Source: an uncultured Chloroflexia bacterium (lineage in GTDB: Bacteria; Chloroflexota; Limnocylindria; Limnocylindrales; CSP1-4). From it: a DNA stretch of 64,000 nucleotides. A program made the position numbers and the translations under genes. Each line of letters starts with the position of its first letter. Position 1 is the first letter of the stretch. The stretch is from assembly GCA_963734535.1 (NCBI GenBank), contig CAVTHS010000011.1:146894-210893 (forward strand). The letters run 5' to 3'. This document shows, one piece after another, positions 33,215 to 37,579 of the stretch. The notes beneath the pieces were generated by a model. It was not told the DNA's origin, ran no database searches, and worked only from the letters and a program-made list of their open reading frames with translations.

Positions 33215-33913
33215 CTCGGCGCCCCGGCTGCGTCGGGCCGCGCCCGCCGGGCGATCGCGACGACCTCGAGCAGGTGCCGCGCCGCGGATGCAGGATCAGC
33301 AGCGCCGGCGATCGCGCCGATCACCGCCACGCACGTCGGCGCCGGCCCGGACGGCCGCGGCGGCATTCTCCGGGGTGATCCCGCCGATCGCGACGATGGG
33401 CACGGCTCCACAGCCGCACGAGCCGCCGGCGAGGAGCTCGAGCCCCGTGTGCTGCGCATCCGCCTTCGAGTCGGTCGGGAAGACCGCGCCAACCCCGAGG
33501 TAGTCGGCGTCGCGCACGTCGGGCATCTCGAGCTGCGCGGGATCGGTGATCGAGAGTCCGATCAGGGCGTCAGGCCCGAGGATCGCGCGGGCGACTGCGA
33601 CCGGCACGTCATCCTGGCCGAGGTGGACCCCGTCCGCGTCGGCCGCCAGGGCAAGGTCGAGCCGATCGTTGACGAGGAGGAGCGCTCCGTGCTCGCGCGT
33701 GGCGCTGCGGAGCGCCAGCGCGATCTCCAGGCCGCGTCGCGCGGTCCCCAGCTTCTCGCGGACCTGCACGACCCCGATCCCGGCCGCGATGGCCGCCGCC
33801 GCGATCTCCACCGACGTGCGCCCGCCGCTGAGCGCCTCCTCGGTCACGAGGTAGACGCCGGCGGCGCGGAGCCGTTCCCGGCGCTGCACGCGACGATCGC
33901 CGAGCCCGGTCAC
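33211..33913 (-). CDS. thiE: Thiamine-phosphate synthase (frameshifted at 3' end)
   Basis: VQVREK, LVNDRLDLA, DGVHLGQDD, GAVFPTDSK and AIGGI. Confidence 0.92.
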
Positions 33914-34734
33914 GCCGGCATCATCGGTGTGATCATTGCCCGAGTCCGGGCGCGGATCACGTCGCCGTCAAGGCCGTAGACCGCGTCCATGAGGTGCTGG
34001 CGAAACGTGCCGGGACCGGCGCTTCGCTCCGCCGCGATCTCACCGGCGATCCCGAACGCGATCATCGCGGCCGTGGCGGCCAGGAACGCGTCGGGCTGGA
34101 CGGCCCGGAAGGCGCCCACGAGGGCGGTCGCCATGCAGCCCGACCCCGTGATCGCCCCCATCAGCGGGTGGCCGTTTTCCACCCTGGCGGCGCGCGTCGC
34201 GTCGGCGACGTGATCGATCGCGCCGCTGGCAACCGCGGCGCTGCCCGTCCGCCGGGCGACGATCCGGGCGGCCACATCCGGCGCGTCCGCGGAGATGGAG
34301 TCGACGCCCTGGATCTCCGCGGCAAGCCCGGCGATGGCCGACAGCTCGGCGGCATTGCCGCGAACCACGTCGACGTGGACCGCGGCGAGGATCGCCTCCA
34401 CGGCATCGGTCCGCAGCGTGGTCGCGCCGACCCCCACCGGGTCCAGCACCACCGGCACGCCGCGCTCGTTCGCCTCGCTGCCGGCGGCGAGCATCGCCTC
34501 GATCCAGGCCGGCTCCAGCGTCCCGATATTGAGCACGAGGGCACCCGCGTGGCGGACCATCTCGCGGACCTCGCCGATCGCGTGGGCCATGACCGGCGAG
34601 GCACCGATGTGGAGGGTGACATTGGCCGTGTCGTTCATGACCACGTAGTTGGTGATCTGGTGGATCAGCGGGTGGCGGTCCCGGATCTCGGCAAGGGCAT
34701 CGGCCGTGACGGCCCCGAGGTCGAGCTCACGCAT
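33910..34734 (-). CDS. thiM: Hydroxyethylthiazole kinase
   Basis: PLIHQITNYV, GASPVMA, NIGTL, LDPVG, RGNAAE and ITGSGC. Confidence 0.95.
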   Translation of the reverse strand: MRELDLGAVTADALAEIRDRHPLIHQITNYVVMNDTANVTLHIGASPVMAHAIGEVREMVRHAGALVLNIGTLEPAWIEAMLAAGSEANERGVPVVLDPVGVGATTLRTDAVEAILAAVHVDVVRGNAAELSAIAGLAAEIQGVDSISADAPDVAARIVARRTGSAAVASGAIDHVADATRAARVENGHPLMGAITGSGCMATALVGAFRAVQPDAFLAATAAMIAFGIAGEIAAERSAGPGTFRQHLMDAVYGLDGDVIRARTRAMITPMMPA

Positions 34735-35560
34735 CGCGGTATCTCCACAGGTGATTCACGGGGCCGCGGCCCGCCCCGAGCGGCTCGGCGTGCTCGATCG
34801 CGCCCTGCAGGAAGACCTTTGCGGCCCGGGCCGCGTCGAGCGGCGTCGCTCCGCGGGCAAGGCCGGCCGCGATCGCCGCCGAGAACGTGCAGCCGGTCCC
34901 GTGCGTGTGGGGCGTGTCGATGCGCGGACTCGAGAGCACCTCGAACGTGGTCCCGTCGAACGCGATGTCCTCGGAGCGTTCGCCGCCGAGGTGGCCGCCC
35001 TTGACGATGACCAGGCGCGATCCGAGCGCGTGGATCCGGCGGGCGGCCTCGCGCGCCGTCCGCGCGTCCACGACGTCGAGGCCGGCGAGCACGGAGGCCT
35101 CCGGGGCGTTCGGCGTGACCACTGCGGCGATCGGAAGGAGCATGTCACGCAGCGCCGCGATCGCGTCCTCGCGCAGGAGCCGGTCGCCGCCCTTCGCGAT
35201 CATCACCGGATCGACGACGAGCCGCGTTATGCCGTGGGCGCCAAGGCAGCCGGCCACCGCCTCGACGATCGCCGCGCTGAAGAGCATCCCGGTCTTGACC
35301 GCGTCTGCGCCGATGTCGGAGAGCACGGCGTCGATCTGGGCCGCCACGACGTCCGCCGGGACCTCGTGGATCATCCGAACGCCTGTCGTGTTCTGGGCGG
35401 TGATCGCGGTGACCGCCGAGGCGCCATACACCCCGAGCGCTGCGAACGTCTTGAGATCGGCCTGGATCCCGGCTCCCCCGCCCGAATCGGACCCGGCGAT
35501 CGTGAGCGCGCGCGGCCGCGGACGGCCGATCACACTGATCGCCTCATTGGTGGACGCCAC
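34727..35560 (-). CDS. thiD: Hydroxymethylpyrimidine/phosphomethylpyrimidine kinase
   Basis: [35 protein letters not shown] and HTHGTGCT. Confidence 0.95.
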
Positions 35561-35586
35561 GGGATCCTGCGCCTCCTGACAATCGA

Positions 35587-35617
35587 GATGCCGTCCGTCG
35601 AGGAACGGGACGGCATC
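35587..35617 (-). terminator. Hairpin downstream of the TPP aptamer (likely expression platform)
   Basis: GATGCCGTCC...GGACGGCATC 10-bp inverted repeat between the aptamer and the thiD SD; U-tract is weak. Confidence 0.5.
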
Positions 35618-35632
35618 GAGTCAGGTGAGGCC

Positions 35633-35720
35633 TGCTTCCTTCGCTGGTACGAGCCAGATCAGGTTCGGCGGGTCTGTGGCTGGTGCCACACTCTCAGCGC
35701 TGTGCGCTCCCCGGAGGCGA
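35633..35720 (-). promoter_or_regulatory. TPP riboswitch
   Basis: Minus strand reads GGGGAGC..GCTGAGA..GACCC..GAACCTGATCTGG..TACCAGCGAAGGAAG; upstream of thiD; TATACT -10 box at 35738-35743. Confidence 0.95.
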
Positions 35721-35847
35721 TCTTCAGTTCGGTCGGCAGTATACGGGATGGCCGGATCGCGGCGGCGGGTGGCCCAGGGCGTGCAGAACGGCGCGAGGGC
35801 GTTCGCGACGCGTCGGGGCTATCCTCCGGTGAGTGTCATCCTCCTCT

Positions 35848-36006
35848 GCGTCTCACGGTCTGGCTCGTATGCTCCCTGCCCACCCAGTGGGTGTGGCTTC
35901 CATGCGTTTTGCCGGCCGTGAGACTCGGTGGACCGGCCGGCGTGACTTGATAGGAGCGTGGCTTCGCCCCGACTCAGGTGTGTCCGCCGACCGGCCCGGT
36001 GTCACC
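35848..36006 (+). ncRNA. Putative IS110 bridge RNA (target-binding and donor-binding hairpins)
   Basis: Hairpin 1 (35850-35924) has internal-loop strands TATGCTCC and CATGCGTT matching the flanks; hairpin 2 (35930-35997) shows ATAGGAGCG matching the IS end. Confidence 0.75.
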
Positions 36007-36029
36007 TCGGATGAGGAGGAGACGCAGAC

Positions 36030-37076
36030 ATGGTCGTCCTGGGCGCGGATCTGCACAAGCGGAGTCACACCGTCGTCGTGATCGATGCAACGGGTCGCCA
36101 GCTGGCCGAGAAGACGATCGCCGCGACGGACGCGGGCCACCTCGAGCTCCGCCGCTGGGCGGCGCGATGGCCCGAGCGGCGTGGGCCTCGAGGACTGCCG
36201 CCACCTGTCGCGCCGGCTCGATGCCGAACTCGTCCGGGCCGGTGAGTCGGTCGTCCGGGTCTCGCCCAAGCTGATGGCCGGCGCCCGCCGCTCCGGACGA
36301 GAGCCCGGCAAGAGCGATCCGATCGACGCCCTCGCGGTCGCCCGCGCCGTCCTGCGCGAGCCCAACCTGCCCGTCGCCTCGCTCGACGGCCCCGACCGCG
36401 AGGTGCGTCTCCTCGTCGACCATCGCGAGGATCTCGTCGGCGAGCGGACCCGCCACGAGCAGCGCCTGCGCTGGTTCCTCGTCGAGCTGGCCGTCGCCGA
36501 GCCCGCGCCCCGCTCACTCGGTCGGGCGGTCGTCCAGGCCGCGCTCACGGCGGCGCTCGCCGGTCGCACCGAGCCGGTGGCCCGCTTCGCCCGTGATCTG
36601 CTCGCCCGGATCGTCGAGCTGAGCGCCGCCATCCGCACCCTCGAGCACGAGATCGAGAGCCTGGTCCGAGTCGCGGCGCCGAGACTCCTGGCCTTGCCCG
36701 GCTGCGGCGCCCTGACAGCGGCCAAGATCATCGGCGAGACGGCCGGGATCAGCCGCTTCCGGTCCAAGGAGGCCTTCGCCCGGCACAACGGCACCGCGCC
36801 CAGTCCCGGTCTGGTCGGGCAACGTCGTCCGCCACCGCCTCAACCGGCGGCGGCAACCGCCAGCTCAACGTCGCCCTCCACCGGATCGCCATCACCCAGA
36901 TCCGGCTCGCCGGTCCGGGCAAGGCGTATCTCGAACATCGACACGCCTCGGGTGACACCCGGACCGAAGCCATCCGCGCCCTTCGCCGACGGCTCAGCGA
37001 CGAGGTCTTCCGCCGCCTGCGAGCCGATGAGGCTCTCCGGGCGACCGAGCGGGCCCCGCTCGCGACAGCCGCTTGA
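36030..37076 (+). CDS. IS110 family transposase/recombinase (frameshifts near 36183 and 36803)
   Basis: GADLHKRSH, LEDC, GKSDPIDA, LPGCG..AAKIIGE, HNGTAP..WSG, GGNRQLN and LRRRLSDEVFR. Confidence 0.92.
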
Positions 37077-37090
37077 CATAGGAGCAACGC

Positions 37091-37579
37091 ATGTCGCAGA
37101 TGCCAGCCGCCGGCGATCCGGCTCCCGCGATCGCCCTCCCCGACGAATCGGGCACGCTCCATCGCCTCGCCGACCGAGCCGGCGCCTGGACGGTTGTCTA
37201 CTTCTACCCGGAGGACGACACGCCGGGCTGCACGACCGAGGCCTGCGAGTTCCGCGACAGCTTCGCGAGCCTGCGCGCCGACGGCGCCGAGGTCTGGGGG
37301 ATCAGCCCCGACGATGCCGGCAGCCACGCGAAGTTCCGGGCCAAGTTCGAGCTTCCGTTCACGCTCCTCTCCGACGAGGGCGCGGCGGTGACCAGCGCGT
37401 ACGGCGCGTGGGCCGAGCGGACGAAGGACGGCCGGACGACGATGCGGACCATCAGGTCGACGTTCCTCGTCGGCCCCGACGGACGGATCGCGCACGCCTG
37501 GCCGGCCGTCAAGCCGGAGGGCCACGCCGCCGACGTCCGCGCGGTCCTGGCGGCCGCGAAGGCACGGGCGGGACGCTGA
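37091..37579 (+). CDS. bcp: Thioredoxin-dependent peroxiredoxin (BCP/PrxQ)
   Basis: YFYPEDDTPGCTTEACEFRD, GISPD, LLSD and RSTFL. Confidence 0.95.
   Translation: MSQMPAAGDPAPAIALPDESGTLHRLADRAGAWTVVYFYPEDDTPGCTTEACEFRDSFASLRADGAEVWGISPDDAGSHAKFRAKFELPFTLLSDEGAAVTSAYGAWAERTKDGRTTMRTIRSTFLVGPDGRIAHAWPAVKPEGHAADVRAVLAAAKARAGR

Follow-up and report, generated by a model that had tools for sequence, protein, structure and literature searches.

Two questions are raised by the locus of bcp in the window (the whole stretch of 64,000 nt that was analysed): what separates this gene from its promoter, and what brought it there? We consider it probable that positions 35830–37088 are a dead IS110-type insertion sequence, guided by a bridge RNA and located between the -10 hexamer of bcp and its start codon. 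This judgement covers the whole explanation jointly, i.e. the element, its two-loop RNA, the guide format of its clade and the consequences derived from them.

The insertion at bcp and its left end

The features of the locus are as follows (+, forward strand):

35820–35825, +: host -10-type hexamer TATCCT, the left target, kept in IS-free alleles 6 nt before the bcp ATG
35826–35829, +: CCGG, target-derived spacer left of the crossover, according to IS-free alleles and the 2-nt variation before TGAGTG
35830–37088, +: decayed IS110-type insertion sequence, 1259 bp, with the ends TGAGTG...GGAGCAAC
35837–35842, +: CATCCT with TG in front of it; predicted to act as -10 in the junction promoter, 17 nt after TTGACA once the ends are joined
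35850–35924, +: target-binding stem-loop (basal stem 35850–35864/35911–35924, apical stem 35878–35885/35890–35897)
35865–35877 and 35898–35910, +: internal loops of the target stem-loop in the consensus fold
35868–35876, +: left target guide TATGCTCCC, in the sense of the top strand of the -10 region
35901–35905, +: right target guide CATGC, complementary to GCATG (37089–37093)
35906–35908, +: GTT, complementary to the last 3 nt of the element, AAC; proposed handshake/core-type pairing
35930–35997, +: donor-binding stem-loop (stem 35930–35946/35982–35997, apical stem 35960–35962/35966–35968; helices 3–5)
35950–35957, +: left donor guide, with the same sequence ATAGGAGC as the right end (37078–37085); invariant in the clade
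35972–35976, +: ACTCA, the right donor guide, which complements TGAGT in the left end (35830–35834)
36030–37076, +: transposase pseudogene (DEDD/RuvC-like and Transposase_20), with three frame changes near 36183, 36810 and 36845
37073–37078, +: TTGACA, predicted to be the -35 of the junction promoter; it overlaps the TGA stop of the transposase (37074–37076)
37081–37084, +: GGAG in the right end, 6 nt before the bcp ATG, Shine-Dalgarno-like and in front of a formerly leaderless gene
37089–37093, +: right target GCATG, including the bcp start codon (37091–37093)
37091–37579, +: bcp, AhpC/TSA family peroxiredoxin (Pfam PF00578 at 4.6e-36)

The insertion sequence lies in the same direction as bcp. 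The bcp start codon is in its right flank, as the earlier note on this DNA had stated. Intact transposase genes in relatives have 345–349 aa, and the window transposase aligns to an intact relative over amino acids 1–340, in three frames. With three frameshifts in its transposase, and with no second copy found in the genome, the window copy cannot move by itself.

The intact relative from G007 matched PF01548 (1.5e-20) and PF02371 (2.8e-17) in Pfam. The solved bridge recombinases were matched by sequence (ISCro4 at 3e-8, IS621 at 4.6e-4), with the motifs GxDxxK, KSDxxDA and SG aligned. The 'vwSGn' of the element family aligns with the 'yeSGs' of ISCro4, and by analogy the aligned serine in the Transposase_20 domain would be the conserved, catalytic one. 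The non-coding region upstream of the transposase is 200 nt long (35830 to the ATG at 36030), and only 12 nt follow the stop codon. No target-site duplication was found, as the two flanks lacked a common repeat in all 12 of the copies. Both domains, the upstream non-coding region and the missing duplication identify a member of the IS110 family, of the IS110 type rather than the IS1111 type.

The left end (~200 nt) has a bridge-RNA-like fold of two stem-loops that contain internal loops. Its minimum free energy in the window copy is -102.9 kcal/mol (z -3.77), better than 200 of 200 shuffles. The pairing of GTCTCACGG (35850–35858) with CCGTGAGAC (35916–35924), described in the earlier note, is present. 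The two-hairpin structure was found in 56 relatives by a covariance model: 97.4% of cells were paired and 26 of 38 pairs had changed on both sides (15 of 21 in helices 1 and 2, the target stem-loop), in an alignment that was fitted to the model, which favours the structure. This covariation was reached by none of 500 shuffles. The covariance search was run without L065–L067, L069 and L071 (same places as G007/G019 loci) and without L073 and L075 (no left end). The covariation and the two Pfam domains agree with the IS110 element with a bridge-RNA-like left end that the earlier note had proposed. An Rfam search of 35830–36030 gave a best match of only 9.5 bits (E 9.2), and the sole match above the gathering score in 35500–37400 was a TPP riboswitch.

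Four guide–DNA matches were found, namely the left and right target guides with the flanks and the left and right donor guides with the element ends. On the left, TATGCTCC (35868–35875) agrees with TATCCTCC (35820–35827) at seven of eight positions, which is the match reported earlier. On the right, guide and flank agreed in 28, 25, 34, 38 and 38 of 38 insertions at RT positions 1 to 5. Both donor guides covary with the ends. In a subclade, the left guide ACAGGAGC accompanies the end ACAGGAGC, and in L108 the guide ACAGGAGG accompanies the end ACAGGAGG. Across clades, the ends TGAGT, TCAAT and TCAGT each occur with a fitting right donor guide.

Element ends and empty sites

The element is TGAGTG...GGAGCAAC (35830–37088), because IS-free bcp alleles read TATCCT-CCGGCC-ATG. 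The alleles found were TATCCTCCGACCATG and TATCCTCCGAGCATG, with TATCCTCCGGCCATG in the nearest metagenome alleles; the spacer is 6 nt long and without AAC in every one. No IS-free bcp allele contained AAC, neither in 18 rows from the genus nor in the best 17 of 80 metagenome loci, the ones whose upstream region was read. All 15 IS-free alleles with a TATCCT- or TATTCT-type hexamer have a 6-nt spacer. In the nearest of them this spacer is CCGGCC, i.e. the layout is TATCCT-CCGG-CC-ATG. Moreover, copies that are internally identical over 1247–1263 nt vary in the 2 nt that precede TGAGTG.

These data correct the earlier note, which had reconstructed the empty site as TATCCT-CCAACGC-ATG and had itself listed a differing IS-free allele as refuting. 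The alleles differ from the reconstruction, and together with the 2-nt variation before TGAGTG they move the ends to 35830 and 37088. Of the proposed pairing of CATGCGTT (35901–35908), the complementarity stands: it is the reverse complement of AACGCATG (37086–37093). The latter is not pure target; it comprises 3 nt of the element end (AAC) and 5 nt of flank. Similarly, ATAGGAGCG (35950–35958) contains the left donor guide, and this part equals the right end as claimed. Its ninth base had been taken for the first left-end base at the circle junction. It does not report that junction, because the predicted circle junction is GGAGCAAC|TGAGTG, and the agreement is a coincidence. No circle junction was seen in the contigs of the sequencing runs, each of which contained ≤0.23 of the sampled words; this result bears on neither expression nor activity.

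An isogenic empty site was found in the sister clade (...TTTCTTCGCG|AAGGAGACC). It corresponds to a simple insertion, lacks the ATC of the filled site and shows ends of the same kind as TGAGTG...GGAGCAAC. At the right junctions, the loop segment agreed with the 3 nt after GGAGC in 44 of 47 cases, with four covarying types (AAC, ATC, TTC and GAC).

The ends could also be drawn as in the earlier note, i.e. GGTGAG...ATAGGAGC (35828–37085). CATGCGTT would then pair with eight nucleotides of target, the empty site would be TATCCTCC joined to AACGCATG, ATAGGAGCG would mirror the circle junction, and this junction would read GGAGC|GGTGAGTG. The match in the window is indeed 8/8, and within a lineage the three bases that follow GGAGC do not vary, which a strict target requirement would likewise produce. 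One observation contradicts the ends TGAGTG...GGAGCAAC and fits GGTGAG...ATAGGAGC-type ends: in a 612-nt sediment contig (run X1), 97% like the G007 locus, TACGCTCC is directly joined to AACCCATG. This contig skips exactly 1250 nt of the G007 locus, and the joint has one ambiguous base. Nevertheless, we consider this version unlikely. It is opposed by the lack of AAC in the IS-free bcp alleles, by the nearest IS-free spacer, whose GG would belong to the element in this version, by the two variable nucleotides before TGAGTG in otherwise identical copies and by the sister-clade empty site without ATC. Furthermore, A[AT]C was found at -5 to -3 in only 10 of 486 leaderless-type sites of the genome, which is too few for three to five copies per genome; the count was similar at neighbouring offsets, so there was no enrichment.

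Two further candidates were rejected. The ends TGAGTG...GGAGC, with GG and AAC both derived from the target, would give spacers of 9–11 nt and need an exact AAC insertion in the window bcp allele compared with every IS-free allele; the 6-nt peak of TANNNT spacers in this genome and the sister-clade empty site also speak against them. Footprints as a common feature were discarded since A[AT]C is not enriched at -5 to -3 of the leaderless-type sites.

Guides and targets across the clade

With the ends at 35830 and 37088, the bcp empty site is a leaderless layout even more canonical than the one first reconstructed, as its spacer is 6 nt long. In this genome, TANNNT before ORF starts peaks at a 6-nt spacer (75 vs a background of ~8). 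Ten TANNNT-N5-9-ATG/GTG sites opening at least 100 codons were found in the window, matching the roughly ten other genes of this layout counted before. In another hit gene, TACNNT 6–8 nt before ATG was kept in 12 of 12 orthologues.

Within the genus, all 12 full copies lie between TANNNT and ATG/GTG. For the wider comparison, 61 of 79 rows were used as independent left junctions (start TGAGTGT and at least 20 nt of left flank), with many loci coming from metagenome bins and copies within one genome not being phylogenetically independent. The rows left aside were 16 of an Actinomycetota clade, L100 (no flank) and L113 (left end not intact). A TANNNT-type (-10-type) guide was present in 48 of the 61. 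In 45 of these 48, the flank has a TANNNT whose end is 4 nt (26 cases), 5 nt (17) or 6 nt (2) from the element; the copies are thus not at sites unrelated to their loops, which the earlier note would have counted as refuting. On the right side, ATG/GTG was found within 1–3 nt of the junction in 42 of 42 cases, and 38 of 40 such start codons open at least 100 codons or run to the locus end (40 being the events with both TANNNT and a start codon).

The variable bases of guide and flank correspond. The guide NNN equals the flank NNN at 116 of 135 positions, compared with a permuted mean of 60.7 (sd 5.2), and none of 20,000 permutations reached 116. The loop–flank covariation that the earlier note had suggested looking for is therefore present. 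In one genome with two lineages, the guide TACCCT occurs at TACCAT twice and the guide TAGACT at TAGACT three times. The covariation of guide and flank across independent insertions supports the reading that the target loop encodes a -10 hexamer plus a start codon, as first proposed from the window copy.

In a tree from the coding part alone (76 of 79 rows, those with at least 900 nt of coding part), there were 13 guide hexamers, at least 21 changes and two nested escapes to palindromic targets. The hexamers and the changes on the tree imply a natural reprogramming of the guides. The palindrome motif of the G066 lineage gave 27 matches vs 21 for a reversed control and is not a high-copy repeat; AAC is absent from two similar sites that carry no element.

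The position at gene starts could instead result from selection or from open promoter DNA and not from RNA guidance, with the likeness of loop and flank being incidental or due to misdrawn ends. Insertions elsewhere could be lost by selection and would not be seen, and the hexamer-to-crossover distance varies by 2 nt, which would be unexpected if bases pair in a fixed register. This explanation is very unlikely, however, as the loop NNN tracks the flank NNN far beyond expectation, also for the two lineages in one genome, as the non-consensus guide TAGACC of L107 lies at a TAGACC flank, and as sister lineages whose loops differ are found at non-promoter sites that match those loops.

Weakest of all is the idea that the left-end RNA is a mere leader which controls transposase translation and has no part in site choice: the 5' end of the window copy can pair with the ribosome site region, but this pairing is not conserved across 45 distinct left ends (z < -2 in 3 of them, median z -0.68), covariation links the two internal loops to the flanks and to both ends of the element, and the recombinase is related to solved bridge recombinases. 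A conserved masking of the transposase ribosome site by the first 24 nt, which would have silenced read-through transcripts, was accordingly dropped.

No shared core dinucleotide of the IS621 kind was found in register at both junctions among the copies compared. Cores of 2 nt (CG, GG or AC/TC) were tried by eye in several registers, and none fits all copies.

Proposed mechanism and known systems

Under RNA guidance, the first loop would bind the -10 region through its 5' strand: TATGCTCC has the sense of this region and would pair with its bottom strand. The 3' strand of this loop, CATGC, would pair with NN+ATG of the gene. After strand exchange, the next three bases (GTT) would pair with the incoming donor strand, i.e. 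with the last three bases of the element itself, following the logic of the IS621 structures. The second loop would read the element's own ends, with ATAGGAGC for the right end and ACTCA for the TGAGT of the left end. The clade appears to keep the guide format TANNNT...NNATG and to vary only NNN; therefore, each lineage would aim at leaderless starts with one -10 variant.

What the data show are structure, covariation, positions and ends, whereas transcription, translation and activity are inferred. Capture of the host promoter would follow from the geometry. In the inserted state, transcription from the host promoter would enter the element, covering first the guide RNA and then the transposase. 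Between the transposase stop codon and the displaced gene lie 14 nt, and this gene would gain GGAG at a 6-nt spacing, which may serve as a donated Shine-Dalgarno site for bcp. Shine-Dalgarno cores are enriched at spacers of 6–10 in the genome. GGAG at the right end is kept also in lineages that do not target gene starts, and if it serves as a ribosome site, this may be just a by-product. Once the ends TGAGTG...GGAGCAAC are joined, TTGACA, 17 nt and TG-N-CANNNT (CATCCT in the window copy) would form the usual junction promoter, whose function is proposed by analogy with IS621. TTGACA is conserved in nearly all right ends listed, NANNNT is present at the predicted -10 in 44 of 45 distinct left ends, and TG one base before it in 45 of 45. 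A simple promoter and terminator scan of 35600–37300 returned nothing and is uninformative for this kind of promoter, as shuffles also gave about zero.

We put forward only tentatively that the clade has specialised on a functional grammar, the junction of -10 box and start codon in leaderless genes, and takes over host promoters. Taken jointly with the Shine-Dalgarno-led second cistron, the unlike overlap bases, the footprints and the reshaping of gene starts, this proposal is rather doubtful. If it is true, the host promoter becomes the element's own, and guide RNA and transposase are supplied steadily while the element is inserted, a step that limits IS621. The target gene would be rebuilt as a Shine-Dalgarno-led second cistron, so that insertion costs little. 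Recombination would proceed with unlike overlap bases in donor and target, occasional 3-nt footprints may lengthen the promoter-to-start spacer, and over time the element would reshape gene starts in leaderless-rich bacteria.

Repeats or conserved stretches of coding sequence are what bridge RNAs have so far been described to target in nature. In this clade, the guide seems to retain the format of a promoter plus a start codon as its variable bases drift. The clade would thus offer a natural series of reprogrammed guides paired with genomic targets and a case of recombination without a shared core. The hypothesis offered is that of an RNA-guided element which secures its expression from host promoters and spares the targeted gene. 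The elements may also mark leaderless promoters in poorly known Chloroflexota (Limnocylindria) without transcript data. Our search found no literature linking IS110 elements or bridge RNAs to leaderless genes, and the terms 'leaderless' and 'start codon' are both absent from the text of Durrant 2024; such sites may be listed in the target tables that supplement the 2024 papers.

The element resembles IS621 and ISCro4 in its DEDD/RuvC-like domain with a Ser-bearing C-terminal domain. Further likenesses are the ~200-nt 5' non-coding RNA with target- and donor-binding internal loops, left guides in top-strand sense and right guides complementary to the top strand, a loop segment that would pair with the partner DNA after strand exchange, and a predicted -35 in the right end with a predicted -10 in the left end. 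However, the recombinase is only distantly related (E 3e-8 for ISCro4, 4.6e-4 for IS621), there is no shared CT-like core (the 2–3 nt at the crossover are A[AT]C in the donor and mostly G/C in the target), and the register of the left match is flexible. The target of the clade is a -10 box and a leaderless start codon, with many guide variants, and not a REP-type repeat.

ISEc21 and other seekRNA IS110-type elements need an upstream non-coding RNA for site choice; the circle abuts the ends and creates a junction promoter, and there is no target duplication (Siddiquee et al. 2024). The window element is like them in its upstream non-coding RNA, which would choose the site, and in the missing duplication; its predicted circle junction with a promoter would be a further likeness. 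ISEc21 aims at a conserved coding stretch of IS3-family transposases, whereas the window clade aims at gene starts. The Actinomycetota sister clade is like ISEc21 in that it sits in a repeated element.

The IS900 group of mycobacteria (IS900, IS901, IS902 and IS116) belongs to the IS110 family and is known for landing beside host translation signals. In the published consensus target, IS900 is inserted between ribosome binding site and start codon. Our literature search found no statement of this consensus, only a passage on hed, an ORF that IS900 carries opposite the transposase strand, without its own ribosome site or start codon. IS900 was compared by description only. Its left target part is a Shine-Dalgarno site and not a -10 box, and host signals there serve an antisense ORF, whereas the transposase of the window element has the orientation of the host gene, and the element targets the promoter–start junction of a leaderless gene.

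ISPpu10 (IS110; 2026 preprint) recognises a repeated intergenic hairpin by a sequence and structure match and, in the available part of the preprint, is not about gene starts; the palindrome-targeting sister lineages of the clade resemble it.

The window copy and its left end

The IS110-type element lies in a divergent region, with a TPP riboswitch/thiD-like/thiM-like operon on one side and bcp on the other.

Features beside and within the window copy
33910-34734, minus strand: thiM-like ORF, downstream of the TPP riboswitch
34727-35560, minus strand: thiD-like ORF, downstream of the TPP riboswitch
35618-35723, minus strand: TPP riboswitch, 65.2 bits (gathering threshold 54.3)
near 36183, 36810 and 36845: frame changes in the transposase, from alignment with an intact relative

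The riboswitch was the sole above-gathering match near the left end, and no Rfam family matched the left end of the element itself. The transposase reading frame is broken (the alignment falls in three frames), and the window's genome was found to contain no second full copy, just a 65-nt left-end remnant on another contig. Therefore, the window copy is a fossil, unable to move on its own. A second thiD-bcp locus in the same assembly (L036, G000:C12:16400-18000; 93-97% identity) carries no IS, meaning that two strains are binned together (contamination 7.1%).

Relatives at 74-81% identity were found in the same genus, with up to four copies per genome, and most have intact genes (345-349 aa). 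One intact relative contains PF01548 (DEDD_Tnp_IS110) and PF02371 (Transposase_20). Its sequence also matched two bridge recombinases of solved structure, ISCro4 (E 3e-8) and IS621 (E 4.6e-4), with the acidic and SG motifs aligned. According to the record titles, further relatives mostly come from Limnocylindria-kind Chloroflexota and a more distant clade from Actinomycetota.

The hairpin arms (35850-35858 and 35916-35924), the loop strings TATGCTCC (35868-35875) and CATGCGTT (35901-35908), ATAGGAGCG (35950-35958), the right end ATAGGAGC (37078-37085) and the bcp ATG (37091) were all found where the earlier note had located them. The left 200 nt had a minimum free energy of -102.9 kcal/mol (z -3.77), better than 200 of 200 shuffles. 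The consensus of eight left ends consists of two stem-loops with a large internal loop in each, and a covariance model built from these eight gave full-length matches in 56 chosen loci. In the 56-locus alignment, 97.4% of cells were paired and both sides had changed in 26 of 38 pairs; none of 500 shuffles reached these values. Pairing fell to 31-48% when the partners were slid by one to three columns. Fitting the alignment to the model introduces a bias towards the structure, yet the margin remains wide.

A solo remnant of an IS left end was present at locus L002 1501-1579 (G000:C2:217752-217830), with a TAGGCT hexamer on one side and the ATG of a tsaE-like gene on the other. From the target-binding stem-loop it keeps the 5' half (model positions 30-86, 22.6 bits). 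This leaderless-type gene appears to have gained a leader of ~90 nt of IS sequence.

Element ends and empty sites

The ends proposed in the earlier note (GGTGAG...GGAGC) and its empty site (TATCCTCC joined to AACGCATG) are contradicted by IS-free bcp alleles. The second strain in the same assembly has TATCCTCCGACCATG, and a sister species has TATCCTCCGAGCATG. The nearest metagenome bcp alleles (protein 96% identical, one difference in the upstream 50 nt) read TATCCT-CCGGCC-ATG. Among the 18 genus orthologues listed, six have a TATCCT- or TATTCT-type hexamer, all with 6-nt spacers: CCGACC, CCGAGC, CCGGCC (twice) and CGGGGC (twice). Because IS-free alleles have 6-nt spacers such as CCGGCC, GG before TGAGTG reads as host sequence and AAC after GGAGC does not.

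The two bases before TGAGTG vary among copies with zero internal difference over 1247-1263 nt (CC/CC/CG; TC/GG; CC/CT/CT/CC/CC). The three bases after GGAGC are constant within every lineage and are the complement of the loop segment adjoining the right guide at 44 of 47 junctions, with four covarying types. At the corresponding place, A[AT]C occurs in 10 of 486 leaderless-type sites of the window's genome. Moreover, in a Kribbella genome (G067; L127, L255, L260, L261) a repeated element with at least six copies harbours the sister clade. An unoccupied repeat copy, identical up to the junction, reads ...TTTCTTCGCG directly followed by AAGGAGACC and is an isogenic empty site; at the filled site, TCAATG...GGAGCATC separates these halves.

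As the IS-free alleles and four further lines of evidence agree, sequence comparison places the element at 35830-37088. The reported exact 8-mer between loop and right flank combines the last 3 nt of the element with 5 nt of flank, and the circle junction is now predicted as GGAGCAAC followed by TGAGTG. In the IS621 structures, once the top strands are exchanged, the right target guide region forms base pairs with the donor core then brought in and with bases next to it. By analogy, the complementarity of the loop segment to the element's last three bases would fit this pairing.

One contig of the sediment metagenome run X1 is at odds with the ends that all other data give. It is 97% like a locus of the relative G007 (L038 1503-2755) and joins 1503/1504 to 2754/2755, giving TACGCTCC followed by AACCCATG. 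AAC is kept and GG is lost, as in the empty site first proposed. The contig may stem from excision, as a footprint, or represent a naturally occurring allele. A footprint would be left if the two strands were exchanged at opposite edges of an overlap of 2-3 nt that differs between donor and target. If excision footprints exist, the A[AT]C standing immediately before TGAGTG at three left junctions might mark re-insertions into them; these triplets show no genome-wide enrichment at leaderless-type sites of the window's genome (the same 10 of 486). The distance from hexamer to crossover varies by up to 2 nt, and no shared core of the IS621 kind was found at the junctions. A 2026 preprint describes IS621 as mostly moving a single strand and requiring half of the match alone, which could, by analogy, bear on both observations.

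Target sites and guides

The target layout is the leaderless one. TANNNT before ORF starts peaks at a 6-nt spacer in the window's genome (75 cases), with 34, 25 and 39 cases at 7, 8 and 9 nt and about 8 elsewhere. The window contains 10 such sites, in line with the roughly ten counted previously. For another target gene, the hexamer 6-8 nt before ATG is kept in 12 of 12 orthologues.

All 12 full copies in the genus stand shortly after TANNNT and shortly before ATG or GTG. The wider sample comprised 61 independent left junctions of the clade starting with TGAGTGT. Their first-loop guides were T[AG]NNN[TC] (48), C[AG]CTAT-type (8) and TTGGGTCGC (5, all in one genome). Beside the first type, the flank had TANNNT ending 4, 5 or 6 nt before the element in 45 of 48 cases (26, 17 and 2); the exceptions were CACGCT, CACCAT and TAGACC, the last with a guide that likewise reads TAGACC. 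Guide and flank agreed in their three variable bases at 116 of 135 positions, compared with 60.7 (sd 5.2) for randomly dealt guides, and 0 of 20000 permutations reached this value. In one genome with two lineages, each stood at its own hexamer. At the right junctions, ATG or GTG followed 1-3 nt after the element in 42 of 42 available cases (at 2 nt in 38), and the start codon opened at least 100 codons or ran to the locus end in 38 of 40.

The guides keep a common format and covary with their flanks, and the elements stand at real gene starts. The main claim of the earlier note, a guide for a -10 hexamer plus a start codon, is supported across independent insertions, and the loop-flank covariation sought among other copies was found. 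Its observation is real, while the ends and the empty site had to be corrected.

At one right junction (L010, genome G018), the start codon beside the IS opens 7 codons followed by two stops; this target gene may be damaged or misassembled.

On a tree that used only the coding part and excluded the guide loops, -10-type guides fill the clade and two palindrome-targeting groups are nested within it, giving three changes of target class. The 13 guide hexamers correspond to at least 21 changes on this tree: the variable bases were reprogrammed repeatedly within a constant format. In a sister lineage (L081-L085 of genome G066, L160, L167), five identical copies lie inside the short palindrome GGTCGC[CT]-CGGCGACC (insertion at the hyphen). 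The guide of the G066 lineage, TTGGGTCGC, matches this palindrome, and the genome has two unoccupied look-alike sites. A subclade (L097, L098, L105, L108, L109, L118, L119, L134) has the right end ACAGGAGC and a guide changed accordingly, and sits in palindromes such as ACACGATGACC-ACGTCGTGT, away from gene starts. Between the left donor guide ATAGGAGC and the right end there is a match, which in the subclade is kept by a joint change to ACAGGAGC or ACAGGAGG. The ACTCA donor guide pairs with TGAGT, and in the distant clade, where the ends are TCAAT or TCAGT, it is altered to fit.

Proposed expression and comparison with known systems

From the arrangement of signals, we infer consequences for transcription, translation and a junction promoter. 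Because 4-6 nt separate the host -10 box from the inserted element, transcription would begin in the element's first bases and read through guide RNA and transposase. Work on IS621 describes weak guide RNA expression from inserted copies and inefficient excision; a host promoter ahead of the element would lift such a limit on guide RNA expression. Between the transposase stop codon and the target gene there are 14 nt, and a scan found no terminator-like site there. GGAG precedes the gene at a 6-nt spacing, a distance among those at which Shine-Dalgarno cores are enriched in the window's genome. Hence, the target gene may still be made, as a led cistron. The joined ends would form a junction promoter (TTGACA, 17 nt, TG-N-CATCCT), from which the RNA would begin at the base of the first stem. 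NANNNT is kept at the junction -10 place in 44 of 45 left ends.

The article texts searched held nothing relevant that links IS110 elements or bridge RNAs to leaderless genes, and the text of Durrant 2024 contains neither 'leaderless' nor 'start codon'. The window's system would work like IS621 and ISEc21, with the features of the family found except for the shared core. The difference is in the target, which here is a class of functional sites, a promoter box plus a start codon. In mycobacteria, IS900 carries the hed ORF, which lacks a ribosome site and start codon of its own. The IS900 group has a consensus target near host translation signals and is probably the nearest precedent for landing at them.
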